Assembly (NCBI RefSeq): GCF_053078305.1
Contig: NZ_CP166879.1
Strand: one strand, 5' to 3'
Length of the DNA stretch: 64,000 nt
The notes under the pieces were generated by a model. That model was not told the DNA's origin. It searched no databases and worked only from the letters and a program-made list of their open reading frames with translations. Shown here piece by piece: positions 12,233 to 59,227 of this stretch. The number at the start of each line of letters is the position of its first letter. Position 1 is the first letter of the stretch. Made by a program: the position numbers and the translations under genes.

Positions 12233-12528
12233 GTCGCTCCGGCGACCACCAATGCTCCACAAGTGGCCTGAGAGGAGCGCCTTCGGGTGGCTACATGTCG
12301 CTTCGGCGACCACCAATGCTCCATAAGTGGTCTGAGAGGAGCGCCTTCGGGTGACCACATCCCGCTTCGGTGGGCACCAATGTTCCGTTGATCTGAGAGG
12401 AACGCCTTCGGGTGATCAACACCCCCGTAACCTGAAAGGGGATGTGCAGCCAGGATGTTTCTGGTGGTGGTAAATCTGCCCACCTTTGAGAGCAGATATC
12501 GTCAGTCATGACGATGAAGGTTTTCTTT
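12233..12528 (+). repeat. structured repeat element, copy 1 (three about 60-nt sub-units plus tail); candidate ncRNA
   Basis: Repeated hairpins with CTTCGG tetraloop motifs (GTCGC-TTCG-GCGAC etc.) and recurring CTGAGAGGA motifs. Near-identical to copies at 56604-56840 and 58871-59105. Confidence 0.5.
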
Positions 12529-12644
12529 AACTGTTACTGAGTCAGCCGGAATAGTTCTGTTCCGGCTCCCTGACGGGAATATCACAACCCGTCAGGGATG
12601 ATGATGTTCTCTGTCTTTCCGATACTGAGAATGGAGATATCATT

Positions 12645-13112
12645 ATGACTGCAAATACTTCTTCTGCAAACGCTAAAACTGAGTACTTCAATCTGACACT
12701 GAAAGGCCTGGGGTATCTCAGCAACATTCGTCAGGTTAATCATCAGAACGGGACATTTCTCAGTTGTGTTGTGAATGCACTGAGTGGTCCGACGGACAGC
12801 CCGTCCTATGTGCGTTTTGATGTGACGGTTGCCGGTAAAGAGGCAACTTCCCTGATTGCCCGCTGCCAGAAAGCGGTGGATGAAGATCGCAAGGTGCTGA
12901 TTGGTTTTACCATGAGCAACCCCTCTACTGACATTTTTACCCTTAACCGGGGTGAACATGCCGGTGAGCAACGCGTCAGTCTGAAAGCCCGCCTGATCAA
13001 GGTGGAGTGGATCAAAATAGGCCAGGACATGGTTTATAAGACTGAAAAATCGGAATCCATACCGCCACAGAATGGCAATACCCCGCGGGAATACGCAGAA
13101 AATTCTTTCTGA
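12645..13112 (+). CDS. conserved hypothetical ICE protein
   Basis: 155-aa ORF with upstream AT-rich leader and hairpins; followed by a terminator. Confidence 0.55.
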   Translation: MTANTSSANAKTEYFNLTLKGLGYLSNIRQVNHQNGTFLSCVVNALSGPTDSPSYVRFDVTVAGKEATSLIARCQKAVDEDRKVLIGFTMSNPSTDIFTLNRGEHAGEQRVSLKARLIKVEWIKIGQDMVYKTEKSESIPPQNGNTPREYAENSF

Positions 13113-13130
13113 TCGTATTTTTCAACTCAA

Positions 13131-13176
13131 CCTCCCTGATGAAAACAGACCAACCATCAGGGAGGTCTGTTTTCTT
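13131..13176 (+). terminator. rho-independent terminator
   Basis: Stem CCTCCCTGATG...CATCAGGGAGG followed by T-rich tract. Confidence 0.55.
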
Positions 13177-13202
13177 ATCGTTTAACTTTAAGGAAACATG
13201 TT

Positions 13203-13406
13203 ATGAAACCGACAAGCGGAATTCTGGCCGCCAAAGCGGGCTATACCTTACCTCTGCAGATCCTCAGCAGTGCTCGTGGTTATTATATTGGTACTCAGTG
13301 CGACGAAGGGCCTGTGTCCCGGGAATCCGAAGAGTATTTCAGAAATTATGAGCAGGCAGTCCGGGCTCTGGAAAACGGCATCTGGACTCAGCGTGAATGT
13401 GTGTGA
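13203..13406 (+). CDS. small hypothetical protein
   Basis: 67-aa ORF directly upstream of ssb, with AAGGAAA RBS. Confidence 0.4.
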   Translation: MKPTSGILAAKAGYTLPLQILSSARGYYIGTQCDEGPVSRESEEYFRNYEQAVRALENGIWTQRECV

Positions 13407-13421
13407 GGATAAGGAGTTGTT

Positions 13422-13982
13422 ATGGCATCGCGTGGAGTGAATAAAGTCATACTGATTGGTCATCTGGGACAGGATCCGGAAATCCGTTATTTCCCCAACG
13501 GCGGAGGTGCAGTGGCAAATCTGACGCTGGCCACCACTGATACCTGGCGTGATAAACAGAGCGGTGAAATGAAGGAACACACTGAATGGCACCGTGTTGT
13601 GATTTACGGAAAACTGGCTGAGATTGCCGGTGAATACCTTCGTAAAGGTTCACAGGTGTATATTGAAGGTCAGTTAAGAACCCGGAAGTGGTTCGATCAG
13701 CAGAATGGTGTTGATCGTTATTCCACGGAAGTTGTTGTGAGTGTCAATGGTACCCTGCAGATGCTGGGGTCTCCGCGTCAGCAGCAGGGGGGTGGAAATG
13801 TTTCATCTGCTCCTGCTCAGGGAGGATGGGGACAACCACCACAAAATGCACAACAATCAACGGGAAAAAACGGTCAGGCTTCCTCAGGAAGCGGGGGAAT
13901 GCCGCCGATGGACTTTGACGATGATATCCCCTTTATGGGGCGTGGGTATGGCGTTGAACGACGGATTATCCATGTCATCTGA
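13422..13982 (+). CDS. ssb: single-stranded DNA-binding protein with C-terminal extension
   Basis: OB-fold N-terminus ([20 protein letters not shown]...), Gly/Gln-rich linker and acidic tip DFDDDIPF. Unusually, 15 further residues ([15 protein letters not shown]) follow the tip before the stop. Confidence 0.9.
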
Positions 13983-14030
13983 TGTTAACCACGGGGCTTA
14001 CCGCCCCACTTTTAATTCAAGGAGGCGGTT

Positions 14031-14951
14031 GTGAATGAAAACACACCCACTACCCCCACGCCACATGATGCGGCGTTCAGAGCGATGATGGAATGTCCCT
14101 CTGTTGCGAGGGATTTCCTGAAAGGCGCGTTGCCCCCGGAACAACTGAACCGGTGCGATATGAACACCCTGCAACTGGAGCCGACCACGTTTGTGGATCC
14201 GGATCTTCGCCAGTTTGCCTGTGATGTTCTGTGGAGTATGAAAACCACAGATGGCAGGGATGGATACATTTATACGCTGACAGAGCACCAGAGCAAGGCG
14301 GATAAGTATATGGCCCTGCGAATGATGCGCTATGTTCTGGCGGTGATACATCGCCACCTGAAAGCACATGCGTGTGCTCCCGTTGTGATACCGGTGCTTT
14401 TTTACCATGGTGTACCCAGTCCTTATCCATACAGCATGAACTGGCCTGACTGTCTGGATGATCCGGCGTTTGGTCGGGAGCTTTATGGAGAAGGCAGGCC
14501 ACCCAGGGTGATTGATGTCGGTCTTCTTGATGATGAGGGTATCCGTCGCTATAAGCAGATGGCTGCGCTGATGCTTATGATGAAGCTCCGGCAGAAGAAA
14601 GTGGATCTGATGGTTCATCTTGACTTTTTGTCACAGTTGATTCAGATACAGGAAACACACACTCAGGTGGTGACATTGTTTAACTATATGGTGAAAGAAT
14701 GTGATTCAGCTTCACCTGAATTTATACGGGCGATGGCAGAACGTCTGCCAAGACATGAGGATGATCTAATGACTATTGCTGAACGACTGGAACTGGCTGG
14801 TATCGAAAAGGGCCGCCAGGAGGAGAGAGAAAAGGCTCTTCAGGAGAATTACGCATCGGCCCGTCGCATGCAGCAGATGGGTATATCGTCAGAGAAAATC
14901 AAAGAAATACTGCAGTTCTCGGATGATGATTTGCGTAATGCTCTCCGGTAA
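14031..14951 (+). CDS. Rpn-family recombination-promoting nuclease / putative transposase (YhgA-like)
   Basis: N-terminal PHDAAFRAMM...ARDFL and YIYTLTEHQSKADKYMALRMMRY motifs typical of the YhgA/Rpn PD-(D/E)XK family; GTG start with AAGGAGG RBS. Confidence 0.75.
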   Translation: MNENTPTTPTPHDAAFRAMMECPSVARDFLKGALPPEQLNRCDMNTLQLEPTTFVDPDLRQFACDVLWSMKTTDGRDGYIYTLTEHQSKADKYMALRMMRYVLAVIHRHLKAHACAPVVIPVLFYHGVPSPYPYSMNWPDCLDDPAFGRELYGEGRPPRVIDVGLLDDEGIRRYKQMAALMLMMKLRQKKVDLMVHLDFLSQLIQIQETHTQVVTLFNYMVKECDSASPEFIRAMAERLPRHEDDLMTIAERLELAGIEKGRQEEREKALQENYASARRMQQMGISSEKIKEILQFSDDDLRNALR

Positions 14952-15016
14952 TCGGTAATTTATGTTAACCGCAGGATTGTGACATATTTGTTATGTTGCT
15001 TTCCTTCCTGTCAACA

Positions 15017-15047
15017 AAGCGCCTGCATGTCTGCAGGCGTTTTTTTT
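15017..15047 (+). terminator. rho-independent terminator
   Basis: GCGCCTGCA-TGTC-TGCAGGCG stem followed by eight T. Confidence 0.65.
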
Positions 15048-15136
15048 CGCCAGCGGGTAATGAGTTGTTCATTGAGCCAGCCCCGTCTTCTTCTGCACAT
15101 TGACCTCTGATTTATCACTGCAGAGGTAAATACCCG

Positions 15137-15736
15137 ATGAAAAAACGCTTTATCCTGTCCGGACTGACAGTCTGCCTCCTGATGGCGGGATGTCAGGGCA
15201 CTCAGAAACTACAGCAACGGGATGCGGCCATGCCGGTACCGTCGGTCACAGTAAACCGTAATGTACAGCCTGCCAGCCCGGATGTGTATTCACAGGCACC
15301 GGAGGTGGTGCGCTATGACCGTTACCTGCTGGTCAGCACAGAGCCGCAGGCTGTACAGCGTGATCCACTTTCTCAGGTGATCGACATTCGCATTCCCTCC
15401 TCCCTGAAACCCACGGTGGCCGATGCCATGCGTTATGCCCTGAAACAGTCCGGTTACACGCTCTGCGCCACCGGACCGGCCAACGGCGTGCTGTACCGTC
15501 AGCCTCTGCCGGCGGTGCAGTATCAGCCAGGACCACTGAGACTGCGTACTGCCCTGCAGTTAATGGCGGGGCCGGCATGGCAACTGGAAGTGGATGATGT
15601 GCAGAGGGTGGTCTGCCACAGTCTGCGTGACGGTTACCAGTTACCGGTCAGCCAGCTGGCTCCTGTTCCGGTCACCGTTCCTTTTGTGGGTCGTGAACCG
15701 GGTGTGAAGGCAACAGGAGGGTTTCTGAAAAAATGA
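15137..15736 (+). CDS. pilL: PilL-like conjugative lipoprotein
   Basis: Signal peptide with lipobox LMAGC; first gene of the T4SS cluster. Confidence 0.6.
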   Translation: MKKRFILSGLTVCLLMAGCQGTQKLQQRDAAMPVPSVTVNRNVQPASPDVYSQAPEVVRYDRYLLVSTEPQAVQRDPLSQVIDIRIPSSLKPTVADAMRYALKQSGYTLCATGPANGVLYRQPLPAVQYQPGPLRLRTALQLMAGPAWQLEVDDVQRVVCHSLRDGYQLPVSQLAPVPVTVPFVGREPGVKATGGFLKK

Positions 15737-25117: not shown

Positions 25118-25129
25118 GGAGACATCCCC

Positions 25130-31798: not shown

Positions 31799-31802
31799 GA
31801 CT

Positions 31803-43103: not shown

Positions 43104-43348
43104 TCAGGATCTGATGGAGGTTTTTTACGAGAATTAAACTTATCGATCAGATTAAAAACTATCGCTGCTAGTGTTATCGATGTACCTGCTATGCACCCAA
43201 ACACAATAACTCTTATCATTTGGTGGGTCGGGAAAAAAAAGAATCCTTTTGTTAGGTAAATAAATAAAGCTCCTCCCCCCATCAAAAGAAATCCACTGAT
43301 GATACAAAAGAGGCATGCATATATGAACAATACAATGTAAGCAATCAT
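43100..43348 (-). CDS. cdiI: CdiI immunity protein (small two-TM membrane protein)
   Basis: 82-aa ORF whose start overlaps the cdiA stop (ATGA); two hydrophobic helices. Confidence 0.65.
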   Translation of the reverse strand: MIAYIVLFIYACLFCIISGFLLMGGGALFIYLTKGFFFFPTHQMIRVIVFGCIAGTSITLAAIVFNLIDKFNSRKKPPSDPE

Positions 43349-46300
43349 TTCCCCTCCTCCTTCTTCGCGCTAGAAGAGAACTGATTATTACTACTTGCTT
43401 CTTTTATATATCCACCAAGAAATTCACTACCAAAAGATCCTGTCGCATCAAATATAAATCCCGGAAACTCTTTCCCAGTAACTGAGTTTACTATTCCGGG
43501 AGCATATACTCCAAATGCTCCACCCAATCCGGCCCCGGCAGCAGCCCCTCCAATAGAGCCTGTATTTGGACCATCGGTAAAGAATGCACCACCCATCGCA
43601 ATTCCGACGTTTTGTCCGACAGTTCTCCCCGGCGCAAGCATACCCGCAATGCCTGAACTGGCACTGCTTTTCCAGTCCCAGTTTTTGTTTTCATTACCTG
43701 GCTGGCTTAAATCAAACCACTGGTAACTTCCATTGGCTATCTCCGCGACGACTCCACCACTGACCATTTTACCGACCGAAGCAGCAGGCCCCAGATACCA
43801 TGCCCCGGCAATCATTACACCATCCTGATATCCATCCACGATCACTTTCGTGATATTGGTGCTGTCCGGCATATCACCTTTCGCTATCTTATCCAGTCCA
43901 GCCTGTGTTTGTTCCGGTGTCAGATTATTGTCCACCGCGTACTTGTTCCATGATGTAGCCGCAGCAGCATTGCTTTCAAAACCATCACCGAAGCTGAGCG
44001 CATTATTCTCAACCGTCGTCTTACCTGACTGTGCTCCGGCTACCGCTGAAGCTCCCGAATCTCCCACCAGACCACCGGCCAGGCCGGCAGCAACCGTTGC
44101 CAGTGTCGAGACCGTCTGCTTCTCTGTCCCGCTCAGTTCACTCACCGGCTTACCGTACATCTGTGTGGCTATCATTCCCACCACCTCGCCGGTGGCTGCG
44201 CCTGCGGCACCAGCCAGAGCATTCTTACCCTGTGCCAGAGACAGGGCTGCATTCACTACTGCATGAGCTGCCACACGTCCCGCACCGTCCGGGGTGGTCT
44301 GTTTGATAATTTCAGCAATATACGGTGCTGCACCACCTGCCAGGGCTGCACTCAGATTACCGCCGGCCAGCCCCTGTACTGCTGCCGTTGCGGCCTGTAT
44401 CGCCTGCTGGTATTTGCCTCCCGTTCCAAAACCTGAGGCCGCCATACCGTTATTGTAGGCCCGCTGCGCCACATCCTGTTCCGTGAACGGTTTTCCTGCT
44501 GCCTCAAGCTCCTCACGGGCCTGATTCAGTGCTGCCGGGTCCCGCTTCGCTTTCTCACCAGCTATCTGGCCTTCCGTTCTGGCAATATCTGCCACCTGGT
44601 TACCAATCTCACCAATGAGCTGCGCCTGCTGCAGTCGCTGCTGCTCTTTTTCCCTGTCAAAGATGGGGGACAGCGTCTGGTTTGCATGTGCTGCGTCACG
44701 GTTCAGGTCTGCCACATCCTGTTTCTGGCTCTGCGTATCCCGGATGGTGATATTCCCGGCAGACACAGCCGACTGAGTGGTGCTTTCTGCATGGCCTTCA
44801 TGATTTGCACCAACCAGCAGATTGTTGGCCATATTTCCCGCGAACTGGCCACCGATGCTGCCGCCAGTGCTGATACCCACGCTCTGGTGTTCAACTTTGT
44901 AATCAGCACGATTTTCGATATCACGGAAGCCCAGTGTACCGGTATCCAGCCGGTTTTTATCTGCCGTTGCCGTGGACGCAATCACCGCACCGTTCAGTTG
45001 CGTATGCTGTCCGGTGGTGACATCAAACCCGCCCCTGCCGGCAAAAATCCCCGTCTGCTCCTGCACACTGTCATAGTTACTGTGCATTTTATCCCGGCTG
45101 AGGCTCACACTCGCCGAACCGCTCATGGACCCGAAAGTGAAGCTGCCTCCGGCACTGGCATTCTGCTGCTTACTGTCATAACGGTCACTGTCCTGCTCAC
45201 TGGTCAGTGTCAGATGACGACCGGCATCCACTTTCACCGTTTCACCGCCGGCCTGCACGCCGGTAAGCGTGGTGTCCCGCCCGCTGATAATGGTCAGGCG
45301 GTTTCCCGCATCCACCGTGGTTTCTGTATGGGTGGTACCGTTGCCTTTTTCACTGCCCTTACCCTGGTTTGCGCTGGCTGAAACACTGATACCCCAGCCT
45401 CCGGCCCCCACACCGATACCGACACCCACACTGCCGCCACTGGATGAGTTCTTTCCTTCCAGCTTTGACGTGTTTTCTGCTGATACCAGATTCACGTCAC
45501 GGTTTGCCTGCAGCAGAACGTTGTTCCCTGCCTTTATCTGACTGCCCTGTATCGTCAGGTCACCATCCACGTCCTTCACGCCGGAGCCGGTGGCCTGAAT
45601 ACTGAGGTTATTACCTGCGGTCAGGGCGCTGTTCTTCGCCACCGTCTGCTCTGACTGCTGTTCTGATTTCGAAGACTGGCTGCCGTAAGAGAGGCTGATA
45701 CCCACGGCATTGTTATTCTCTTTCTGGTTGCCCTGTGCTTCTGCCAGTCGTCCGGCCTGCACGGCCTGAGCCCCCGAGAGCGCGGCCTTCACCCCCTGCA
45801 GGGCTTCAAGCCGGCTGTTTCCGGCAGATTTCGCCGCCTGCACGGTCTCCACCGTCGTGTTCAGGGCGCTGCCCACTGTGCCGGACAGGGCAAGCGTCAG
45901 ACCGGAGGTTTTCTGCTCCACCGAATGCGTCTGCACATGCCGGTCTGTGACGGCGCTAATGCTGACCTCCTTACCACTGAGTGCCATGTCCCTGCCGGCA
46001 ATCAGGTCAGCACTGTTGGCGCTCAGCCGGTTACCTGCCTGAAGGGAAACATCACCGTGAACACTCCCCACCGTGCTGCCTTTCTGTGTGCTGTCTGTTG
46101 CGGTGTCCGTGACTTTCAGACTCTGGCTGCCCACACTGAATCCCACACCTCCGGAGCTCATCAGCCCGGATTTTTTCTCCTGTTTCAGGTGTGTTTCACG
46201 GTTGCTTTCTGTCAGCGTGCCGATACTCAGGTCATTTCCGGCAGCCAGGGAGACACGGTTATCCCCGGCCACACTGCTGCCCGTGACGTTCAGATTATGT

Positions 46301-49300
46301 CCGGCACTGATACTGACCGTATCCCCGTTCAGTTCACTGCCCGTCATGGTCCGGCGGTCAGTGACATCATGCGTGGTTGTGGTGGTTTTCGATAACATCC
46401 CGCTGCTGCCGGTCACTTTATGGTATTCATCCAGCGAGCGGGTATTCTGTGCACCGGTCAGCGTCACGTCATGACCTGCCATCAGGGCCAGGCCTTTCTG
46501 AGCTGACAGCGATGCCGCCTGTGACGTCATATCCCGTCCGGCGGTCAGCGTGACATCACCGTTACCGGCAAGCGTGCTGCCCGTACTCTGTGTGACGCCC
46601 TGCGACAGACGATTATTTTTATCCCAGATAATATTGTCCTGCGCGGAAGTGGTCACTGTGGAAAGCGTCATATCCCTGCCCGCACTGAGTTGCGTCAGGC
46701 TGTCCTTACCCTGATTCACCACCGTTGCAGCCGTCAGATTCATATCCCGTCCGGCCTGCAGCACCAGTCTTCCCTGGTCGTTCTGCACATACACGCCGGC
46801 CACACTGTCGATACTGGTACGTTCAAAATGGTTCTGTCCGGCGTCGCGCTGTGCCGTACGGGTGGTGGTGGTCAGACTGATATCCCGTCCGGCCATCGCC
46901 AGCAGGCTGTCCGTGGCCTGCAGCAGCCCGCCGGTACTGTTAATATCCGTCCGGGCCGTCAGGCTGACATTTGCTCCCTGAATGGAGCCGGCCTGGTTGT
47001 GAATGTTTTCTGCACTGAGCTGCACGGTCTGCTTCCCGGCCAGTTTACCGCTGTTAAACAGGTCACCATCCAGCTTCATCACCATGTCCCTGCCGGCAAT
47101 CAGCGCACCGGCACTGTTCACATCACCGGGTTTTACACGGGCATACACCTGAGGTACCTGAACTGTCTGCGTGCTGCCGTCCGGCAGTGTCACCGTGGTG
47201 TTAACCAGCCAGACAATATCCCCGGTCAGTAACGCCATCTGCTCAGCCGTCAGCGCCACACCCGGTTTCAGGTTGTATTGCTTACCAAATGCAATACCCG
47301 CATCCATTAATGCCTTAAACTGCTCTTCATCACTGCCGTATCTGTCCAGGTACCGTTGCCCGGTCAGAGCGACAACCTGCTCTCGAATCAGACGCTGCTC
47401 GTAAAAACCGTCTCCCAGACGTTTGAGCATGTTATCCCCGTTCTGAGAAAACGCCTTCTGCATGTAATCACTGCCCAGCCACATCTTCTGGTTCGTAAAA
47501 CGCGGGTCCGTTTCAACCAGATATGGCACATTCACTGCCGGATTTGTTTTAAACAGACTGCTGTCCGGCAGACGGGTATCCGGCCCGGCAACATGGATAC
47601 TGCCCTGAGGTGTGCTGACTTCAAACTGCTGCCCCGGCAACAGAATGACCGGTTCACCGGCAGACACCACCGGGCGAAGCGGTATCCGGTCAGTAGCGGC
47701 TACTGCCGCATCCACATTTCCGGCCTGTCCTGTCTGTACATCCGTTCCCTGTGGCTTCAGAGGAGAAAGCGTGACCTGGCTGCCCTGAATCTGTCCGTGG
47801 CTGGTGAGCTCTCCCGGCTTCAGCGTAATGCTCTGAATTACAGTGGGCGGAGTGTACTGAGAGGTTTTCTCCCCCTGCTTATCCTTTCCTTTTTTCCTGA
47901 TACGGTAATAATACGTGGATGTTCCTGAGTCCGTAACATGCCGCTCGCCACTGACACTGACATTTTCCACGCTTCCTGACGGAATGGTCAGCAGGCCGCC
48001 TGCAACAACCTGACTCTTATCATTAAGCAGTTTGTCTGCCACAATCGTCATGCCGGCACCGGACAGAATTTTTCCCGGGTCGGAGTCTTTTACCCGGGTT
48101 TCTTCCACGGTACGGGTGTAATCATACTGCGTGAATTTATCTCTGGCGCCTTCCGGTGTATGCAGTTTTTTCAGTGAGTTACTGGAATCGTTATCCACAT
48201 AAACGCCCGGTTCACCGGCGCTCCAGCGTTTATCTGAGCCGCTGAGCTGATACTCAGTCACCTTTTCCGTGGAAACCACCACGCGCTCCGTGGTGAAATG
48301 GTCATTGACGTTATTGATTTGTCCGGCACTCAGTACCAGATATCCGGCGGCTTCAATAGTGGCACTGTGATTATTCAGTACACCGGCTTTCCCCGTGGCG
48401 GCACCATTCGCATCCAGCATGCCACCAGTATGCATATCACCTGCACTGTAAATCAGGCTGTGCGTCCGGTTATTCAGGGTCTGTACCCCTAAGTCCACAC
48501 GCTCACGCCCGGCCAGCGTCGCCGCCACGCCATTTTCTTCCAGATTATTAAATGTGGCAGCGCTGACACCAACAGCATCGCCGTAGATTCGCCCGGTACC
48601 GGAATTCGTCAGGGTGTTCGCCTGAAGATGCGTATATTTCCCGTCAATCAGCCCACGGTTCAGCAGTGTGTCCGTCACGTTAAGCCAGGTCTGCCCGGCA
48701 CTGATTTCACCTTTCTCTGTGTTTTCAAGGCGGATGCTGTTCAGGTCAAGCCGGCTGCCTGCCAGCAGGCTGCCGGTATTAGAGACATCGCCATTAACGG
48801 AAAGCGTAAGGTTTCCGTTCGCAATAGTCTGACCACTGTTGCTGAACGTTGTGTTACTTTTCAGCGTCATATCGCCCAGCGAAAGCAGTTTCCCGTCACC
48901 ACCGAGCTGACCGGCATCCACAGATACTGACTGCCCGGCCTTAACCACGCCGTCACGGTTCGAAAACGCCAGCTGACGGCCACTGACAGACAATGTCGCG
49001 CCGGAAGAGAGGACGCCGTCATTATTACTGAGCGTCCTGTCTGCCATAACCGTAAGCGCCCTGTCTGCCAGAATACTGCCCTCCTGGTTATCAAGGTCCT
49101 GCGTCGTGATGTGTATTGTCTGCGCTTCCAGCCCCTGACCGGTATTCTGCGTGTGGCGATTGATAAACTGCAGGGCGTTCAGCGTAATGGCGGAACCACT
49201 GCGAATCAGACCAGAGACGTTGTCCACAACGCCCCGTACACTGTTGAGCAACATGTCGCCCACAGACTGTATTTGTCCGTGGCTGTTCTGCAGACCTCCC

Positions 49301-52290
49301 GTATGCAGACGGAGTTCACCTTCACTGACCAGCCGGCCCCCCTCACGGTTATCCAGCGAGGTGGTGCTCAGGTCAGCTGTCGTTTTCGCCCCCACGGTCC
49401 CGCCCCGGTTATCCATTGCTCCGGTACTGACAGTCAGTTCCTGCAGGCTGTTCAGCGTACCGCGTCTGTTATCCAGCGTCTGGCCTGCGGTATTAATGCT
49501 GATACCCCTCCCCTGAATAAGACCGGACTGATTGTTCAGCGCCTGGCTGTTCCAGCCGAGCAGACCGTTTGCCACCATCTGACCGGATGTATTGTTAACC
49601 ACGCCTGCAGTCAGGGACAGAGCATCTCCCGACAAAAGCACACCGGCAGTGCTGTCCAGTGTGCCGGCATTCAGCGTCATCGGACCCTGACTGATAACCC
49701 CGCCCCGGTCACCACTATTACGGTTACTCAGTGTGTCAGCACGGAGATTCAGCGATGCACCGCTCTGTATCAGGCCGCCGGCATCGTTGATGATATCCGT
49801 CGAGGAAAGTGTCAGTGACTGCTGTGCCACCAGTCTGCCGCCCTGATTATCAAACCGTGTGACATCCAGCCTGCTGTTACCGTTGCTGACCACCGTCCCC
49901 TGCTGATTTTCCAGCACACTCAGGTGCGTATTCAGGTCCCCGCCGGCGGCAAGCGCCCCTTCCTGATTACTGACATCACCACCACTCAGCAACATATCCG
50001 TCCCGGCCTTCAGTGCGCCTTTCTGGTTCATCAGCGTACCTGACGATATCTGTAATGACGTCTGACTCCCCAGCACGCCCTGACGGTTATCGAGCGTTCC
50101 GGCGTTCAGGGTCATATCCTTCTGACCCGCCATAAATCCCTGCTGGTTATTCAGCATACCGGCCCGCACTGTCAGGGTACCGGCGCTGCTGATACCACCC
50201 CGTGTTTTCGTGTTCCGGTTACTGAGTACCCCGTCCTGTACATCCAGCGTCATGTCACTGCCGGACTGAATCAGACCATCATCAGAGACCAGTTCGCTGC
50301 CTGACACAGACAGCGTTTTCTGTGAAAGCAGTCTGCCGGACGTATTATCCAGCGCACCATCCAGCGTCACAGACAGCCCGTCAGCCACCACCGTACCCTG
50401 GTGGTTATTCAGATTCCCTGCCGAAATATCCAGCCTGCCGGCGGACTCCATTCGTCCCTCAGTATTGCTGACAGCCTGCTGTGTTTTTATCCTGCCCGTT
50501 CCGGCAGCAGCTGAAATCAGTCCGTTGTCGTTATTCAGCGCCTGTGTATTAATCAGGATGTCACGGCTGGCAAGCAGACGTCCCTGCTGGTTATCCACGG
50601 CGCCGGTTGTCCTCACCTGCAGACTGCCTGACTGCGCCGCCTGCACTTTCCCCCTGCGATTATCAAGGCTCAGTGCATCCAGACGCACCGCGCCATTTGC
50701 CGCAAACAGCCCTTCCCGGTTATCCACGCTTCCCGGCAGACTCAGCGAAAAATCCCCTGTTCCCGTCTGAGTCAGACTGCCTTTACGATTTGACAGGCTT
50801 TGTGCCGATATCTGCAGTGTGTCGGCATTTATCGTGCCACCATTATTGCTGAAGTGCCCGACAGTCCGGGCGGAAAGCGTACCGGCACTCAGTTGCGCAT
50901 TCTGTGTGGACAGATTTCCACTGGTTGCATCCAGCTCAGTATGTTGTCCCTGTATCCGGCTGTTGCTTAAATCCAGCCCCTGCCCCTTCAGTTGCATGTC
51001 CCCACCGGACAGAACCTGTCCGTGTGCCGCCAGTTCGCCGGTGGTACTGACAGTCAGGTTGCCCGCTGCCGCCAGACGTCCGTCATCTTTCACCCCGGCG
51101 GCCAGCAGACTCCGCTCACCGCCGGTCAGACGCGCTGTCTGAATCCGGGTGTTGCGACGTGATGCCACAGAGCCTGTATGGGTGAAGACACCATCACTCT
51201 GTATCTGCGTATCCTGCCCCGCATAAACAGAACCACTGTTATGCAGCTCCCGGGTTGTCGCCAGATGCACATCCGTTTTCGCACTGATACTGCCACTGTT
51301 TTCAATACGTCCGTCAGCCGTCAGGGTAACCGCCCCTGCCTGTGCACCAATATGACCGGCGTTACGAACACCCACCCCCGTTTCCGTACCGACAAGGCGA
51401 ATTTTTCCGGCATACATTCCGCCAAGACTGGCCACATCCAGTGCCATCTGAGGCTGTGAAGAGACATCACCGGTCTTTTTCTCAATCTGCCCGTGCGCGA
51501 TATCCACATTGTTACGTCCTGTGGTCACTTTCAGATCCTGCGCCCAGATACCCGCATTAATCTTCACAGACCGGGCAATGATATCGGTATAATCCGTGCG
51601 CGAGGCATCCATCCCTTTGCCCGTAACCTGAATCTCACCACGTTCAACACTGAATCCGGTCAGACTGCCGTTTTTCATCTGCGGCTGCCCCGTGGTCAGC
51701 GTGGCCCGGTTCGCATTAATAAAACCGCACCCGTCGCAACTGATGCCGGCCGGGTTCGCAATCACCACCTGCGCCTTTTTACCGGCAACCTCAACAAAAC
51801 CGTTCAACTGGCTGGGATTGCGACTGTTCACTTCATTAAGAATGATTCTGGCCTCTCCCTTAGCCAGCCACGGGTTCCCGGCCACCATGCCACCCAGTTG
51901 AGTCTGCACATTGTTATGGGCATTATTCAGAATGACGCCCTGGTTACCGACGTCGAACTGGCTGTATGCGTTATGTGAAACCCCGCCGGCAGAAGGCGTC
52001 TGAATATTCACCTGCGGAATGCCGCTGGCCGTCTGCGTAATCGTGGGCTGCTGATACCCTGGTGCGCCATGGTCTGCGACAATGCCTGCAGCACTGACAG
52101 AATGCACCATCCCCGAAGCCAGCCACAAAGAGAATGCAAGCGGCGTGACACGGCAGATACGTTGCCTGTGTGGATATCCTGTGCGGGAGGACAGTGATGT
52201 ACCGGCGCGACCGGAACGGGCAATATCTGCCACCACCATCAGCATTCCCCGGGCTTTGTTAAAAATAATGCGGTAACAATTTCTGTTCAT
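43345..52290 (-). CDS. cdiA: CdiA, contact-dependent growth inhibition exoprotein (TpsA/filamentous-haemagglutinin family)
   Basis: 2981-aa ORF; extended TPS signal peptide MNRNCYRIIFNKARGMLMVV, TPS domain with NPAGISCDGCGFIN, long haemagglutinin-type repeats, VENN motif at 44002-44013, then a 218-aa Gly-rich hydrophobic C-terminal domain (43348-44001). Confidence 0.9.
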   Translation of the reverse strand: MNRNCYRIIFNKARGMLMVVADIARSGRAGTSLSSRTGYPHRQRICRVTPLAFSLWLASGMVHSVSAAGIVADHGAPGYQQPTITQTASGIPQVNIQTPSAGGVSHNAYSQFDVGNQGVILNNAHNNVQTQLGGMVAGNPWLAKGEARIILNEVNSRNPSQLNGFVEVAGKKAQVVIANPAGISCDGCGFINANRATLTTGQPQMKNGSLTGFSVERGEIQVTGKGMDASRTDYTDIIARSVKINAGIWAQDLKVTTGRNNVDIAHGQIEKKTGDVSSQPQMALDVASLGGMYAGKIRLVGTETGVGVRNAGHIGAQAGAVTLTADGRIENSGSISAKTDVHLATTRELHNSGSVYAGQDTQIQSDGVFTHTGSVASRRNTRIQTARLTGGERSLLAAGVKDDGRLAAAGNLTVSTTGELAAHGQVLSGGDMQLKGQGLDLSNSRIQGQHTELDATSGNLSTQNAQLSAGTLSARTVGHFSNNGGTINADTLQISAQSLSNRKGSLTQTGTGDFSLSLPGSVDNREGLFAANGAVRLDALSLDNRRGKVQAAQSGSLQVRTTGAVDNQQGRLLASRDILINTQALNNDNGLISAAAGTGRIKTQQAVSNTEGRMESAGRLDISAGNLNNHQGTVVADGLSVTLDGALDNTSGRLLSQKTLSVSGSELVSDDGLIQSGSDMTLDVQDGVLSNRNTKTRGGISSAGTLTVRAGMLNNQQGFMAGQKDMTLNAGTLDNRQGVLGSQTSLQISSGTLMNQKGALKAGTDMLLSGGDVSNQEGALAAGGDLNTHLSVLENQQGTVVSNGNSRLDVTRFDNQGGRLVAQQSLTLSSTDIINDAGGLIQSGASLNLRADTLSNRNSGDRGGVISQGPMTLNAGTLDSTAGVLLSGDALSLTAGVVNNTSGQMVANGLLGWNSQALNNQSGLIQGRGISINTAGQTLDNRRGTLNSLQELTVSTGAMDNRGGTVGAKTTADLSTTSLDNREGGRLVSEGELRLHTGGLQNSHGQIQSVGDMLLNSVRGVVDNVSGLIRSGSAITLNALQFINRHTQNTGQGLEAQTIHITTQDLDNQEGSILADRALTVMADRTLSNNDGVLSSGATLSVSGRQLAFSNRDGVVKAGQSVSVDAGQLGGDGKLLSLGDMTLKSNTTFSNSGQTIANGNLTLSVNGDVSNTGSLLAGSRLDLNSIRLENTEKGEISAGQTWLNVTDTLLNRGLIDGKYTHLQANTLTNSGTGRIYGDAVGVSAATFNNLEENGVAATLAGRERVDLGVQTLNNRTHSLIYSAGDMHTGGMLDANGAATGKAGVLNNHSATIEAAGYLVLSAGQINNVNDHFTTERVVVSTEKVTEYQLSGSDKRWSAGEPGVYVDNDSSNSLKKLHTPEGARDKFTQYDYTRTVEETRVKDSDPGKILSGAGMTIVADKLLNDKSQVVAGGLLTIPSGSVENVSVSGERHVTDSGTSTYYYRIRKKGKDKQGEKTSQYTPPTVIQSITLKPGELTSHGQIQGSQVTLSPLKPQGTDVQTGQAGNVDAAVAATDRIPLRPVVSAGEPVILLPGQQFEVSTPQGSIHVAGPDTRLPDSSLFKTNPAVNVPYLVETDPRFTNQKMWLGSDYMQKAFSQNGDNMLKRLGDGFYEQRLIREQVVALTGQRYLDRYGSDEEQFKALMDAGIAFGKQYNLKPGVALTAEQMALLTGDIVWLVNTTVTLPDGSTQTVQVPQVYARVKPGDVNSAGALIAGRDMVMKLDGDLFNSGKLAGKQTVQLSAENIHNQAGSIQGANVSLTARTDINSTGGLLQATDSLLAMAGRDISLTTTTRTAQRDAGQNHFERTSIDSVAGVYVQNDQGRLVLQAGRDMNLTAATVVNQGKDSLTQLSAGRDMTLSTVTTSAQDNIIWDKNNRLSQGVTQSTGSTLAGNGDVTLTAGRDMTSQAASLSAQKGLALMAGHDVTLTGAQNTRSLDEYHKVTGSSGMLSKTTTTTHDVTDRRTMTGSELNGDTVSISAGHNLNVTGSSVAGDNRVSLAAGNDLSIGTLTESNRETHLKQEKKSGLMSSGGVGFSVGSQSLKVTDTATDSTQKGSTVGSVHGDVSLQAGNRLSANSADLIAGRDMALSGKEVSISAVTDRHVQTHSVEQKTSGLTLALSGTVGSALNTTVETVQAAKSAGNSRLEALQGVKAALSGAQAVQAGRLAEAQGNQKENNNAVGISLSYGSQSSKSEQQSEQTVAKNSALTAGNNLSIQATGSGVKDVDGDLTIQGSQIKAGNNVLLQANRDVNLVSAENTSKLEGKNSSSGGSVGVGIGVGAGGWGISVSASANQGKGSEKGNGTTHTETTVDAGNRLTIISGRDTTLTGVQAGGETVKVDAGRHLTLTSEQDSDRYDSKQQNASAGGSFTFGSMSGSASVSLSRDKMHSNYDSVQEQTGIFAGRGGFDVTTGQHTQLNGAVIASTATADKNRLDTGTLGFRDIENRADYKVEHQSVGISTGGSIGGQFAGNMANNLLVGANHEGHAESTTQSAVSAGNITIRDTQSQKQDVADLNRDAAHANQTLSPIFDREKEQQRLQQAQLIGEIGNQVADIARTEGQIAGEKAKRDPAALNQAREELEAAGKPFTEQDVAQRAYNNGMAASGFGTGGKYQQAIQAATAAVQGLAGGNLSAALAGGAAPYIAEIIKQTTPDGAGRVAAHAVVNAALSLAQGKNALAGAAGAATGEVVGMIATQMYGKPVSELSGTEKQTVSTLATVAAGLAGGLVGDSGASAVAGAQSGKTTVENNALSFGDGFESNAAAATSWNKYAVDNNLTPEQTQAGLDKIAKGDMPDSTNITKVIVDGYQDGVMIAGAWYLGPAASVGKMVSGGVVAEIANGSYQWFDLSQPGNENKNWDWKSSASSGIAGMLAPGRTVGQNVGIAMGGAFFTDGPNTGSIGGAAAGAGLGGAFGVYAPGIVNSVTGKEFPGFIFDATGSFGSEFLGGYIKEASSNNQFSSSAKKEEGK

Positions 52291-54582: not shown

Positions 54583-55203
54583 ACGAAAAACCTTTTATGC
54601 ATGCTGTGTCAACAATCACCAGCCTCCTGACGATGTCTGCCGCCATTTTGGCAATAACACACTACCGCCCTTCCGGAATTCCCCGTATCAACCGGTACCA
54701 GAATGCTGAGTAACCAGTCAGCCAAATCAGGCTGGTTTAATTTTGCTCATTATAGAATAATGATCTGAAAAATATCAATATAACAGGTGTATCGATCGTA
54801 ATTGCAGATGCTTGCAGATCTTTATTCCAGTATATGTTGTCAAGCTGGAATATTTAGAAATATATATCCATGACTAATGTGGAAATACAGAAAATTATTC
54901 CAGTGAATGCTTTTTATACGGTCTCCTGGCACAGAAAATGGTGATTTTTGATTTGAATCATTGAAATCAGTTCTGCTAATAAGAAGACATGCTGAAAAGC
55001 CGATTTTCAGGGGGTGATTGAAGGGATTGTGAGTTTTTCCTTCGGCTTTTAACGTAACTTCCTGTTTTCCTGATATTCCACGGCAAGATTAATTTTTAGC
55101 GGAGCAGAATGAATAAAATCTTCATCTGGTGTTTTTGCTGCGCGTAAATGCAGGTGTAACTGTGGATGTTATCCACTGAAGAGCTGCTGATGAGGATGAA
55201 GAC

Positions 55204-55776
55204 ATGCTGACTAAAAAAATGTTACTCGTTTGTGCTTCGTGTGTTGCGCTGAGTGCCTGTTCTGCACAGGAAATTGCAGAGCTGAACAGGCAGATAAGTG
55301 ACGGTGCATTTGCTGTGACAAAAGTACTGAACGTAGGTGTAAACCAGGCAGATGATGATCTCAAATATCTGTCTCAGGCACCCCGGGCAAAAAGAGAGAA
55401 ACGTGATCATGTCATAGAAGTCCCTGTTGATGTGGATACAGCTGCGGGAAGACTGAAACGGTACTATAAGTTTTATTCAAATGAAGAAGTCGATGCGATT
55501 CGTAATAACGGACATGCGAACGGGAAGTGGGCCGCAGCAGCAATAAGTCAGAACGGACATATGTGGGATGCCATGCCCGGTAGTTATTATAAAATGGGCA
55601 GTGACTGGGATGGTGGCGAATTTGATGATCATCTGACGCTTGAACTTGAAAAAAATGGCAAAGGAAGTCGGATATATATAACGTATGCATCTCCGGCACC
55701 GGGGCATCTGAAAGATAAATTTATTGAGCCATTAGTTAAACGTGTGAAGGATGTGGCTGAAGGCCGGGTCAGGTAA
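55204..55776 (+). CDS. hypothetical lipoprotein
   Basis: Signal peptide with lipobox LSAC; divergent from cdiB. Confidence 0.55.
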   Translation: MLTKKMLLVCASCVALSACSAQEIAELNRQISDGAFAVTKVLNVGVNQADDDLKYLSQAPRAKREKRDHVIEVPVDVDTAAGRLKRYYKFYSNEEVDAIRNNGHANGKWAAAAISQNGHMWDAMPGSYYKMGSDWDGGEFDDHLTLELEKNGKGSRIYITYASPAPGHLKDKFIEPLVKRVKDVAEGRVR

Positions 55777-55795
55777 CGTGTACTATATAATATAT

Positions 55796-55828
55796 CCCCT
55801 GGCATACTGCCAGGGGATGTTGTTTTTC
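55796..55828 (+). terminator. rho-independent terminator
   Basis: CCCCTGGCA-TACT-GCCAGGGG stem followed by T tract. Confidence 0.6.
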
Positions 55829-56159
55829 TGTATGTCATTTTATGATGATACCTTTGATATTCTTATAGATGTTTAGGTGAACTGTTAATGATAAATATTG
55901 TCCGATATTATACTTTCTTGTAAGTATATTTTGGGGAGGTTATTTTTATTAAGGTTTTAAATGTTTTATTTTGTTCGCTTTTTCTTTCTCTGTTTGTTGT
56001 TTCTTGCTATTACAACTATCTTGTGATTGTTTATATGCTAAACATAATTCTGATGTTTTAGTACATGTAACATATTGACACATTCTTTATCTGTTTGTAT
56101 TTTACGTGTTAGCAGTGTTTTTATTTTGACATTGCTGTTAACAACCGATTGCTGGAGAG

Positions 56160-56444
56160 GTGAAAATGAATAAAATGTTCAGTCAGTGGATTGATTTTGA
56201 TGAGATGATTACTCCGAAGATCATCAAGGTAATATACTGGTTTTTTCTTTTTATTACAGTGGCCGGTGGTGTTATAGGTATGATAGCCAATCCGTTTGTC
56301 GGACTGCTTGGTCTTATTATGGGTATTATTGGTCTGAGGATTGGGTGTGAAATGATAATTCTTCTTTTTAATATTTATAAGCAGGTTAAAAAGATTGCTG
56401 ATGCGGTACCGGATAAAATAAACGAACAGGCTGAGGATAGTTAA
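56160..56444 (+). CDS. small membrane protein
   Basis: 94-aa ORF with two Gly-rich TM helices, preceded by GGAGAGG RBS; low-GC region. Confidence 0.5.
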   Translation: MKMNKMFSQWIDFDEMITPKIIKVIYWFFLFITVAGGVIGMIANPFVGLLGLIMGIIGLRIGCEMIILLFNIYKQVKKIADAVPDKINEQAEDS

Positions 56445-56603
56445 TTATCTCAGAATAAACATTGATGAATGGTAATAACAGGGACTGTTAATACTGTCCC
56501 TGTTATTTTTTCTGCAGACTGTTTTCTGTTCTTCCTGGTTATGTTCTGAGTGATGATGATTGACGCCTTTTATACGCTCTGATATGCTCAGAATGCATTA
56601 TCT

Positions 56604-56840
56604 GTCGCTTCGGCGACCACCAATGCTCCATAAGTGGTCTGAGAGGAGCGCCTTCGGGTGGCCACATCCCGCTTCGGTGGGCACCAATGTTCCGTTGATC
56701 TGAGAGGAACGCCTTCGGGTGATCAACACCCCCGTAACCTGAAAGGGGATGTGCAGCCAGGATGTTTCTGGTGGTGGTAAATCTGCCCACCTTTGAGAGC
56801 AGATATCGTCAGTCATGATGATGAAGGTTTCTTTTAACCG
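56604..56840 (+). repeat. structured repeat element, copy 2; left direct repeat flanking the recombinase module
   Basis: Near-identical to 58871-59105 and to the last two sub-units plus tail of 12233-12528; the similarity continues about 20 bp past the element. Confidence 0.55.
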
Positions 56841-57467
56841 CGCCCTTTATTACGGGCAATACACAGCAGTGGTTGTGTGATCCTTATCTATCCGGTGATG
56901 CCGGAATGTTTTTACTGCGTAATGGCGGTATTGACTTCTTTTATTCTTTTCATTTGTTTGCCAGCACTTCCTGCGACTGTGCGCGCTGTATAAGACCATT
57001 TGAAATTTGGTCGCTTACGCGTGTACCTGGCGTCTGAAGCTGCGCGGCGTCACTTTCGTCAGCGTGTCACGATGACAAAGTGACGCACGCGCGTCTGCTT
57101 AACGAACCCGCACGAACTGCCGTTTCACGTGATGTTTTTTAACATTTGAAGAAGTGACCCGGCGTGAGAGTGTTTTTTCAACCTCTTCTGCAAATTTACG
57201 GACGATTTTGTGAATAACGTCCATAAATGGTTTTTTGCAGAATTAATTGTTTTTTAAGGAGTTTTATGTAGTGAGATGCCGAATCGGCGATACCACTTAT
57301 TAGAGGTGGTGTCGGGGGCGACCTGGAGACAGGTACAGCAAATGCTGCAGTCGGTGTGCAACACCGATTTGTTACCCCTCAATACCTAAACAATCTGCGC
57401 TACCCTGGCGCACAGGCAGTCACTACCCGAAGGATCGCAACGTTTAACCGTGTCGTCAGGGAGAAAT

Positions 57468-57518
57468 GCAGATGAGTTTTTCTGTTGTGTTCACGGCACA
57501 ACAGAAAAACTCATCTGC
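57468..57518. other. perfect 22-bp inverted repeat with 7-bp spacer; candidate recombinase target site
   Basis: GCAGATGAGTTTTTCTGTTGTG-TTCACGG-CACAACAGAAAAACTCATCTGC, about 50 bp upstream of the recombinase start; no T tract after it, so not a typical terminator. Confidence 0.6.
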
Positions 57519-57567
57519 CGAACGTACAGCTGTTTAAGGTAAAAATTATTATGTGCAGGAGAAGTTG

Positions 57568-58470
57568 ATGTCCAGACGTGAAAAATTACTGAAACAGGAT
57601 CTGGTTGCTCACATTCGAAAAGACAAAGGCAGCTTCAAGAAGCTGAGTGATTACACCAGGATCATGCACCGCTTTGCTGAAAGTCTGGCAAAAATGAATG
57701 TACAGATCAGTTCTGCCGCGCAGGTAAAAGTCCGGCATATTGAGCTATATATGAGAAGCCGGAGTAATGTTTCTGGGCGAACAAGGGAAAATGAAATGTC
57801 TGCAATACGGGTTATGTTACGTCAGGCAGGTAAATATAAGATGGCTGATCCCGAACATCCTCGTCTCAGCAATAAAGCGTTAGGCATTTCCGGCTCCAGT
57901 CGTAAGGGAACAAAAAAATTAATCACGGATGAGCGTTTTCGGGAGATTCTTCAGCGTGTGGAAGCAAAAGATAAAGGGGTGGCTGCTGTTGTTAAACTGT
58001 CACGTTACCTCGGTCTGAGAAATGAAGAAGCTATCCAGTCGGCCAAATCATTACGAACCTGGAAAAAAGCGTTACAACGGGGAGATGAAAAAATAAGAGT
58101 GATTTTTGGTACGAAAGGGGGACGGGAAAGAATGACAACGGTTGTTGACCGGGATAACGTTCTTGATGCTGTTAATTATGCACTCAAATATGCCAGTGAA
58201 CATAATGGACGTCTTATAGACAGAGATAATCTTAAGTCGGCAATGGATTATTATCTTAATACATTACGTCGTTATGGAGAACTGAAAGGCGGAGATGAGA
58301 CTGCACACAGTTTTCGGTACAGTTACGCTGCAAGTGCCATGAAATATCATATTATGAACGGTTACAGTTATAAGGAGGCACTTGCACTGACATCAATTGA
58401 TCTTGGTCATGGTGATGGCAGAGGACGATATATTGAACAGGTTTATTGTCAGTTGTTAGGCTATGAGTAA
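57568..58470 (+). CDS. tyrosine recombinase / phage-integrase-family protein
   Basis: ORF track 57553..58470 (GTG); ATG 57568 after AGGAGAAG RBS. Catalytic-domain-like motifs: LGLRNEE (Arg I), HSFRYSYA (H-x-x-R) and a C-terminal RGRY region. Confidence 0.6.
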   Translation: MSRREKLLKQDLVAHIRKDKGSFKKLSDYTRIMHRFAESLAKMNVQISSAAQVKVRHIELYMRSRSNVSGRTRENEMSAIRVMLRQAGKYKMADPEHPRLSNKALGISGSSRKGTKKLITDERFREILQRVEAKDKGVAAVVKLSRYLGLRNEEAIQSAKSLRTWKKALQRGDEKIRVIFGTKGGRERMTTVVDRDNVLDAVNYALKYASEHNGRLIDRDNLKSAMDYYLNTLRRYGELKGGDETAHSFRYSYAASAMKYHIMNGYSYKEALALTSIDLGHGDGRGRYIEQVYCQLLGYE

Positions 58471-58502
58471 TAACTCATGGCGATTTCGTACGGGTAAATA
58501 TT

Positions 58503-58826
58503 ATGGATTGTACTATTTTGCTGAAAATAATCTCTGTAAAAGAGATTACAAAAAATTCGCCTTTGTGGTCACACTATCTGGCGCGATATGTTGATTCCGG
58601 ATATCAGGCCGAGTTTGAATGTGAAGGAACAGCAGATAAATGGGATATCTATGATGAATGGGACATCTATGAATCCATTGCGGATTATTTTGATGTGGTA
58701 GGAGATTTTAACTGTGATGTCAGATGGTCGGGAAGAAAAATACTGATTAAAGGGACCTGTGTTTTTCCTCTGGGAGAACCCGTTAAGGGAATACATAATA
58801 TTCCTCTTTGGATTGATGTTGAATAA
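58503..58826 (+). CDS. hypothetical protein
   Basis: 107-aa ORF, AT-rich, downstream of the recombinase. Confidence 0.35.
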   Translation: MDCTILLKIISVKEITKNSPLWSHYLARYVDSGYQAEFECEGTADKWDIYDEWDIYESIADYFDVVGDFNCDVRWSGRKILIKGTCVFPLGEPVKGIHNIPLWIDVE

Positions 58827-58870
58827 CTTGACATTCATCTTTTGTGATTTAAAAATATACAGGCTTATAT

Positions 58871-59105
58871 GTCGCTTCGGCGACCACCAATGCTCCATAA
58901 GTGGTCTGAGAGGAGCGCCTTCGGGTGACCACATCCCGCTTCGGTGGGCACCAATGTTCCGTTGATCTGAGAGGAACGCCTTCGGGTGATCAACACCCCC
59001 GTAACCTGAAAGGGGATGTGCAGCCAGGATGTTTCTGGTGGTGGTAAATCTGCCCACCTTTGAGAGCAGATATCGTCAGTCATGACGATGAAGGTTTCTT
59101 TATAA
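58871..59105 (+). repeat. structured repeat element, copy 3; right direct repeat flanking the recombinase module
   Basis: Near-identical to 56604-56840. Confidence 0.55.
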
Positions 59106-59227
59106 CTGCGCCCTTTATTAACGGGCTTTTTCTGACAGCAACACCATGCTGTACTGGTGGTGTTTTAACCCTGACGGGAGTTTTTGTCCGTCGGGGCGAA
59201 GGCTCCCGTTTTTTTACAGGAGTCTTT

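Follow-up and report, generated by a model that had tools for sequence, protein, structure and literature searches.

Three near-identical repeats in a 64,000-nucleotide stretch of Escherichia coli DNA (contig NZ_CP166879.1 of RefSeq assembly GCF_053078305.1; the whole stretch is called the window) are arrays of a known structured RNA motif, STAXI (Rfam RF01728). The explanation that we consider probable is that these arrays serve as leaders at three positions of a conjugative island, that the module enclosed by the second and third arrays is native to the island, and that the arrays have been homogenized in E. coli. Coordinates of the features are collected in Table 1.

The copies share one orientation and are 97-99% identical. 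A repeat search of the window places them in a direct-repeat family, D2, whose + strand members at 12291-12527, 56598-56834 and 58865-59101 are spaced 44307 and 2267 nucleotides (nt) apart. A further family, D4, reflects the one additional 64-nt unit with which copy 1 starts at 12233. Three copies of 237 nt or more at such a level of identity cannot be ascribed to chance. An Rfam scan of the window at the gathering thresholds (40.5 bits for RF01728, 51.2 bits for RF02957) gave four matches, three to STAXI and one to the EFASI motif (RF02957). The STAXI matches score 76.2 bits in copy 1 (12360-12525), 90.9 bits in copy 2 (56603-56768) and 93.6 bits in copy 3 (58870-59035), and all span the full length of the model.

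An earlier interpretation made from the letters alone, the sequence-only reading, had noted the three same-oriented copies, sub-units of about 60 nt, hairpins with CTTCGG, recurring CTGAGAGGA boxes and a final hairpin followed by a T-rich tract, and had proposed an element working at the RNA level. These features are all present in the copies, and the proposal is upheld by the STAXI match, by covariation that includes a pseudoknot, by a promoter directly upstream and by an excess of G.U pairs on the + strand. The sub-units measure 61-64 nt in E. coli and comprise a small hairpin and a 46-nt pseudoknot. A unit model, R1, matches copy 1 at 12246-12294, 12310-12358 and 12374-12419, copy 2 at 56617-56665 and 56681-56726, and copy 3 at 58884-58932 and 58948-58993. 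From the Rfam alignment, what had been taken for a terminal hairpin belongs to the last pseudoknot unit, of which it is the inner hairpin; together with its T-rich tail it is listed as a weak terminator-like site at 12497-12516 and 59071-59090.

The name STAXI stands for Ssbp, Topoisomerase, Antirestriction, XerDC Integrase, and the motif was described as a pseudoknot repeated two or three times near such genes (Weinberg et al. 2010, PMC2864571). The window conforms to this neighbourhood. Copy 1 is flanked by topB and ssb, copies 2 and 3 enclose an integrase-like gene, and ArdC is encoded downstream of copy 3. The tandem pseudoknots with UUCG loops, the occurrence in Enterobacterales and the types of neighbouring gene all agree with the catalogued motif and nothing essential differs; the arrays here comprise four or five units, and every unit has a 5′ hairpin of its own. 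The near-identity of the three arrays in this locus is unusual relative to the other elements compared.

One genome per species was scanned for exact occurrences of the conserved core CTGAGAGNNNCGCCTTCGGGTG. This gave 74 STAXI loci in Photorhabdus, Xenorhabdus, Erwinia, Pantoea, Citrobacter, Klebsiella, Serratia, Yersinia and other genera; 50,697 phage records contain no STAXI-like sequence. The 50 distinct 46-nt units obtained align without gaps. The structure tested consists of an outer stem, a C(UUCG)G inner hairpin and a pseudoknot, in which the bases following AATG pair with three variable bases of the internal loop. Over the 50 units 97.4% of the cells are paired and both sides change in eight of the 14 pairs; the observed covariation score was reached by none of 500 shuffles, and sliding the partners by 1-3 columns lowers pairing to 32-52%. 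The pseudoknot helix is 99.2% paired with two-sided changes in three of its five pairs, and in the outer stem such changes occur in five of six. Both the family search and the covariation analysis, the checks that the sequence-only reading had advised, thus gave clear answers, a known family on all three copies and strong covariation with the pseudoknot included. At pairs outside the search pattern, the wobbles read on the + strand comprise 35 G.U against nine A.C, so selection acts on the + strand.

The promoter analysis used 95 nt upstream of 85 non-redundant arrays, aligned on the start of the unit. The tetranucleotide TTGA occurs 58-61 nt upstream of that start in 64 of them. A sigma-70-type match of at least 9/12 is found for 62% of the arrays, compared with 4.5% of control windows, and in 47 of the 53 arrays with this score or better the end of the -10 hexamer falls 27-34 nt ahead of the unit start. 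This placement is approximately 7-12 nt before the first small hairpin, and in the weaker-scoring arrays the best promoter site is mostly at the same position. Each array of the window has a promoter-like site upstream (Table 1). With its own sigma-70-type promoter so close, a STAXI array is predicted to form the extreme 5′ end of a transcript. Transcripts of both STAXI and EFASI have been detected by reverse transcription quantitative PCR (RT-qPCR) in vesicles of Shiga toxin-producing E. coli (STEC; PMC12370729). The position of the promoter and this detection in a STEC strain together favour a role at the RNA level.

The window is near-identical to an island of E. coli O22:H8 strain 154, which is an integrative conjugative element (ICE) of mating-pair formation type G (MPF-G) with TIGR037xx conjugation genes and, at its end, UvrD-like, TraI-domain and integrase genes beside tRNA-Phe. 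By this resemblance the window is an E. coli MPF-G ICE, and all three STAXI copies are thus located within the island. STAXI and radC account for 80% of the RNA genes in MPF-G ICEs (Cury et al. 2017, PMC5587801). Synteny, assessed by tblastn with the window proteins combined with a covariance model of the unit, reveals three settings that recur in the 74 loci across many genera. At position A the order is topB, STAXI, STY4534, ssb, and the STY4534 gene holds the same place in about 20 loci of other genera. At position B STAXI is followed, after approximately 0.7-0.9 kb, by an integrase-like gene with a product 42-59% identical in amino acid (aa) sequence to that of the window. At position C an integrase-like gene, STAXI and a hyp130/orf139/ArdC block succeed each other; the annotation of the near-identical island places DUF1281 and a DNA methylase past ArdC. 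The orientation of the array is that of the flanking genes in every case. On the evidence of synteny, STAXI arrays stand at three conserved positions of MPF-G conjugative islands in Enterobacterales. Because the succession STAXI-EFASI-integrase-STAXI is conserved in many genera, the 2.3-kb interval between copies 2 and 3 is best regarded as a native module of the island and not as a foreign insert.

The positions differ with respect to termination. In other genera (loci L041, L055, L058, L063, L046 and L068) a hairpin and T run are often found about 20 nt before the first open reading frame (ORF) after position-C arrays, and copy 3 is likewise followed by a strong terminator-like hairpin, whereas such hairpins are mostly missing after position-A arrays. 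The arrangement at position C suggests control by attenuation or antitermination there. The array may thus serve as a read-through leader at one position and form a small RNA of its own at another.

According to the sequence-only reading, copies 2 and 3 bracket only a recombinase-like gene and one small ORF. This is correct as far as ORFs of note are concerned, which measure 305 aa and 107 aa, but the interval also contains the EFASI match (57268-57425) and an inverted repeat (57047-57086). The 305-aa protein shares 52% identity over 295 aa (E = 4e-112) with WP_033567157.1 of pSGI4, an 'integrase domain-containing protein' whose gene comes after STAXI and EFASI on the circular SGI-4 record. 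WP_033567157.1 is one of seven query proteins with which MOB_M, a class of tyrosine-recombinase-like conjugative relaxases, was proposed; MOB_M proteins are abundant in chromosomes, often annotated as integrases and associated with MPF type G (bioRxiv 10.64898/2026.01.13.699239). With 52% identity to a query protein, the window protein is homologous to this class. The two proteins have in common the stretches GLR, HSxRY and GHGDGRGRYI..QVY, which we read as a catalytic signature. The gene is placed after the TIGR037xx conjugation genes and cargo, with a conserved inverted repeat upstream, and its product is a candidate MOB_M-type relaxase.

Among 60 listed of 63 plasmid records matched by the integrase-like protein in tblastn (E <= 1e-3) none is the size of pIGRK, and no similarity to the assayed MobK was seen. 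NCBIfam and PHROGs gave no match for the integrase-like protein, orf107 or hyp130, and tblastn did not find the 107-aa ORF past the integrase-like gene in Photorhabdus and other genera. In Prodigiosinella (L072, 6756-6843) and in Yersinia (L049, 2177-2263) a match to C4 antisense RNA (RF01695) is found downstream of the integrase-like gene, which echoes the proximity of STAXI and C4 noted earlier by Weinberg et al. (PMC2864571).

EFASI abbreviates 'Enterobacteriaceae, Frequently Around STAXI and Integrases', a motif that follows STAXI at a distance of several hundred bases and precedes integrase genes (Rfam text in PMC12370729). The E. coli match passes its threshold marginally, at 53.2 bits, and its placement between copy 2 and the gene at 57553 is exactly that of the family description. 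In all 15 loci of other genera EFASI occurs between the position-B array and the integrase-like gene, with scores of 54-117 bits. A purine-rich AAGGAG(G)A box directly 5′ of EFASI (57250-57267 in the window) is kept across all genera. The box led us to seek a conserved small ORF inside EFASI; the peptides are not conserved.

In an alignment of 20 loci from the position-B array to EFASI, one block is conserved in sequence in all genera, and it holds the inverted repeat GCGTCACTT...AAGTGACGC. In the window this pattern has a single occurrence (57047-57086), against none expected by chance. Pattern search and alignment located it in 44 of 85 loci, small plasmids included, and always between STAXI and EFASI wherever both were mapped; a blastn search with the element around it gave close relatives only. 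The spacer of the inverted repeat varies from 10 to 22 nt, which argues against the core site of a recombinase and fits a recognition site of hairpin type such as an origin of transfer (oriT). The repeat is a candidate oriT for the integrase-like, MOB_M gene. Repeats of the ATTTGAAATTTGG type precede it. The palindromic hairpin at 57468-57518 produced spurious matches to microRNA models on both strands.

Table 1. Features of the window discussed in the text
Feature	Coordinates	Strand	Basis or remark
topB (DNA topoisomerase III)	9918..11966	+	NCBIfam NF005829/TIGR01056, 825 bits; upstream of copy 1
Intrinsic terminator after topB	12147..12170	+	10-bp stem then T run; separates topB from the STAXI transcription unit
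Promoter-like site, copy 1	12189..12217	+	TTGACT, 17-nt spacer, CAGTCT; same fixed position as the promoters of other arrays
STAXI array copy 1 (position A)	12233..12528	+	five units, one above copies 2 and 3
STY4534-family ICE replication protein gene	12645..13112	+	NCBIfam NF040584, 193.6 bits (cut-off 160); first gene past copy 1
ssb (single-stranded DNA-binding protein)	13422..13982	+	NCBIfam NF006533, 266 bits
Promoter-like site, copy 2	56560..56588	+	TTGACG, 17-nt spacer, TATGCT, TG before the -10
STAXI array copy 2 (position B)	56604..56840	+	four units
Conserved non-coding element with inverted repeat	56985..57086	+	GCGTCACTT-N22-AAGTGACGC at 57047-57086
EFASI RNA motif	57268..57425	+	Rfam RF02957, 53.2 bits vs 51.2 threshold; upstream of integrase-like gene
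Long near-perfect palindromic hairpin, EFASI to integrase-like gene	57468..57518		sequence; no T run after
Integrase-like gene, 305 aa, tyrosine-recombinase fold	57553..58470	+	Pfam PF12835 Integrase_1 (5e-55), PF12834 Phage_int_SAM_2 (6e-22)
107-aa ORF	58503..58826	+	no NCBIfam or PHROG match; tblastn: E. coli loci only
Promoter-like site, copy 3	58828..58856	+	TTGACA, 17-nt spacer, AAAAAT
STAXI array copy 3 (position C)	58871..59105	+	four units
Strong terminator-like hairpin, copy 3 to next ORF	59173..59210	+	17 bp + T7
Block headed by copy 3: five ORFs without assigned function, then ArdC	59228..63035	+	tblastn synteny; RefSeq annotation of near-identical island

Each array is a run of 46-nt H-type pseudoknots, in E. 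coli each preceded by a small hairpin, with its own sigma-70-type promoter a few bases upstream. Taken as a mechanism, the promoter-proximal structured RNA would act in cis on its own transcript, through stability, control of termination or processing. Three transcripts would be concerned: that of STY4534-ssb, the EFASI/integrase-like unit, and the block ending with ArdC, DUF1281 and the methylase. A function as cis-acting leader of these three transcripts is, in our view, the most likely role of STAXI. The middle 2.3-kb unit probably represents the transfer-origin and relaxase module of the island, and recombination between the two arrays that flank it deletes or restores the module.

How did the two flanking arrays come to be so alike? 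The sequence-only reading saw a small recombinase-bearing element that had integrated into a structured RNA gene, so that copies 2 and 3 would be the duplicated target and copy 1 an empty one. We now judge this very unlikely. The two copies are indeed 99% identical direct repeats, and within one element the identity of the position-B to the position-C array amounts to 0.99 for the window and to 0.93 for one Xenorhabdus, but in the other nine of the 11 elements compared it is 0.34-0.79; the flanks are not duplicates of a single target wherever the module occurs. The position-B arrays of Serratia oryzae and Erwinia oleae are 0.92 identical and their position-C arrays 0.87, compared with 0.47-0.48 for B against C inside either element, and for arrays that share a position, values between genera reach 0.87-0.96. 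Arrays that resemble their positional counterparts more than their partners must be old and position-specific, and flanks that usually diverge, each with an upstream promoter of its own type, do not support target duplication. Further, the arrangement is conserved among genera whose integrase-like proteins have diverged widely, copy 1 has a separate conserved place, between topB and STY4534-ssb, and other genes downstream, and the presumed recombinase belongs to a family proposed as conjugative relaxases. The near-identity of the three E. coli arrays, including copy 1 some 44 kb away, is on this comparison a lineage-specific homogenization.

Empty sites, which the sequence-only reading had suggested looking for, do exist and could be quoted in favour of insertion. 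A junction query composed of the left flank, one array and the right flank found exactly that layout in one of 5426 genomes with the same flanks (L002), and that genome also carries an occupied copy of the island (L003); a second background provides the same pairing, with L005 occupied and L006 empty. In L002 as in L006 precisely the module between the repeats is missing and a single chimeric array is left, with the left variants and promoter of the upstream array and the right variants and tail of the downstream array, the crossover being somewhere within approximately 210 identical bases. Deletion by homologous recombination predicts the same empty sites, and a crossover anywhere within the identical stretch is what it would produce. 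The chimeric single arrays are, from their sequences, what homologous recombination between 237-nt direct repeats leaves, and a site-specific event is not needed. This accords with the fallback suggestion of the sequence-only reading, that the repeat promotes homologous recombination. The near-identical flanking repeats of E. coli make precise loss of the module possible; such recombination does take place, though as something that follows from the repeats and not as their purpose. The module is also known in another context, a point on which the sequence-only reading had asked for comparison, as a STAXI-EFASI-integrase-like piece stands alone among insertion sequence (IS) elements and metabolic genes on Klebsiella IncF plasmids (L082, NZ_CP032832.1, 7001-8782). 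An occurrence away from an island would suit a mobile element, but this copy has no downstream array.

Two other views of the repeat have to be weighed against that of an RNA leader. STAXI might act as folded single-stranded DNA, either as a priming signal or single-strand origin or as a site for the tyrosine-recombinase-like protein, in conjugative or rolling-circle replication. Neighbouring genes handle single-stranded DNA (ssb, topB, ArdC), STAXI is present on small Rep_1 plasmids, whose rolling-circle replication requires a single-strand origin, and covariation and G.T pairs would fit DNA as well. We nevertheless consider this unlikely. H-type pseudoknots are typical of RNA. A duplex-type promoter lies at a fixed distance upstream of nearly every array, the arrays are always oriented as the genes downstream, and the same cassette is found on ColE1-type plasmids (RNAI, Rop) with theta replication. 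In addition C(UUCG)G loops stabilize RNA and not DNA (Weinberg et al. 2010, PMC2864571), and the RNA itself has been detected by RT-qPCR (PMC12370729). The other view, that the repeat is coding sequence for a minus-strand ORF of 72 aa (MTDDICSQRW...) or else a dispersed repeat with no function, is scarcely credible. The 72-aa ORF is open in all three copies, but over 92 arrays the longest antisense ORF starting with ATG ranges from 5 to 87 aa and in 69 of them none attains 60 aa; the ORF, whose translation and conservation the sequence-only reading had named as evidence against an RNA element, is not conserved. The variation consists of paired compensatory changes and is not codon-like. A structure, promoter and position conserved across genera exclude a functionless repeat.

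Several observations weigh against the explanation in terms of RNA leaders and a native transfer module. The -10 element of the copy 1 promoter is poor (CAGTCT). Minimum-free-energy folding, a model that leaves out pseudoknots, gives copy 3 a z-score of -1.9 on the + strand and -2.2 on the - strand and so does not separate them. The RT-qPCR detection is one report, from a strain other than that of this island. The choice between action as RNA and as single-stranded DNA was left open when STAXI was described, RNA being favoured for the UUCG loops, and the sequence is compatible with the second possibility raised there (Weinberg et al. 2010, PMC2864571). The assignment of a relaxase stands on a preprint and homology, and these islands also encode a TraI (MOBH-type) protein.

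It is instructive to compare STAXI with better-characterized systems. Type III toxin-antitoxin loci of the ToxI type consist of a promoter, tandem pseudoknot-forming RNA repeats, a terminator and an ORF, and copy 3 shows the same layout. However, the STAXI units within an array are not identical, the genes downstream of the arrays are of three unrelated kinds, and the ORFs there have no NCBIfam or PHROG match, so that, as far as sequence families go, we reject a type III antitoxin RNA. The Frpo element consists of a single long, imperfect hairpin, formed by the DNA strand that is transferred, which restores the -35 and -10 boxes of a promoter. STAXI differs in that its pseudoknots follow one another downstream of a promoter of the ordinary duplex kind and in that its wobble pairs favour the sense strand, and a single-strand DNA promoter of this type is likewise rejected. 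The resemblance to Frpo/ssi single-strand promoters (PMC11541004) is that of repeated, structured, non-coding elements that precede the ssb and anti-restriction genes in a conjugative element.

A closer likeness is with Salmonella genomic island 1 (SGI1), in which the mobilization module comprises oriT, sgm-sRNA, mpsA and mpsB (PMC6414798, PMC9299015). Mobilization dependent on MpsA needs sgm-sRNA, which is encoded between oriT and mpsA and makes up the 3′ portion of a longer primary transcript, which has a terminator-like sequence close to its promoter (PMC9299015). In both cases a tyrosine-recombinase-like protein is preceded by an inverted-repeat region and a small RNA, and the order here, promoter-STAXI, inverted repeat, EFASI and gene, matches that of SGI1; the likeness is one of layout. 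A difference is that MpsA has no core-binding domain, which is supplied by MpsB, whilst the window protein has its own (PF12834). By this analogy EFASI may be linked to sgm-sRNA.

STAXI-like sequence is also carried by 39 plasmid records. Among them are 3.1-kb E. coli plasmids with a Rep_1 rolling-circle replicase, 5.3-kb E. coli plasmids, and small ColE1-type replicons (RNAI, Rop) of Pantoea and relatives. On the small plasmids STAXI, the inverted repeat and EFASI follow in the usual order within approximately 750 nt and the integrase-like gene is absent (L083, NZ_CP059920.1; L084, L085, L043, L045, L057, L065, L075 and L078). Mixta theicola and Chimaeribacter coloradensis each combine in one genome an island-type position-A locus and a small cassette replicon (locus pairs L044/L045 and L064/L065), which is the pattern expected of hitchers that carry only an oriT and are served in trans. 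Joining these observations, the position-B STAXI array, the inverted repeat and EFASI could constitute a portable cis-acting transfer cassette of about 750 nt, serviced by the neighbouring MOB_M protein. The oriT would lie inside the transcript that runs from STAXI to EFASI, EFASI would be the counterpart of sgm-sRNA, and small plasmids without the gene would be mobilized in trans. We put this forward as possible rather than probable. The evidence allows it and SGI1 offers a parallel, but it extends beyond the findings themselves.

Other parts of the window deserve brief mention. A 36-bp tandem repeat with the consensus TGCCAGTGGCACCAGAGTATAAAAAATAGCCAATGG occupies 8367-9114 in 20.8 copies, 91% matching, between an IS66-type transposase block (5613-8008, minus strand) and the ORF ahead of topB (9193-9921). 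In appearance this is an array of the iteron or centromere type, belonging to the island. Directly after ssb there is a gene for an Rpn-family recombination-promoting nuclease/putative transposase (14031-14951). On the minus strand an ORF of 2981 aa (43345-52290) makes up variable cargo between the conjugation genes and copy 2; activator and transporter-like genes are downstream of it, and related islands carry hemagglutinin-repeat/two-partner secretion annotation at this place.

STAXI, EFASI and their association with integrase-like genes were already catalogued and the feature itself is not new. The value of the analysis is in the context, which ties both motifs to a fixed promoter, to the heads of three operons and to a compact cassette that is also found, minus the protein gene, on small plasmids. 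In E. coli and Salmonella the cargo of the islands concerned includes virulence and metal-resistance genes. The question of what STAXI does dates from 2010, and the relaxase claim of the 2026 preprint together with the need of SGI1 for a small RNA now make the role of the motifs directly testable. A link of STAXI and EFASI to transfer is a testable lead. If the transfer-cassette proposal is true, two Rfam motifs that date from 2010 and later, both orphans, would for the first time have a function, and RNA would be a general component of MOB_M transfer origins.

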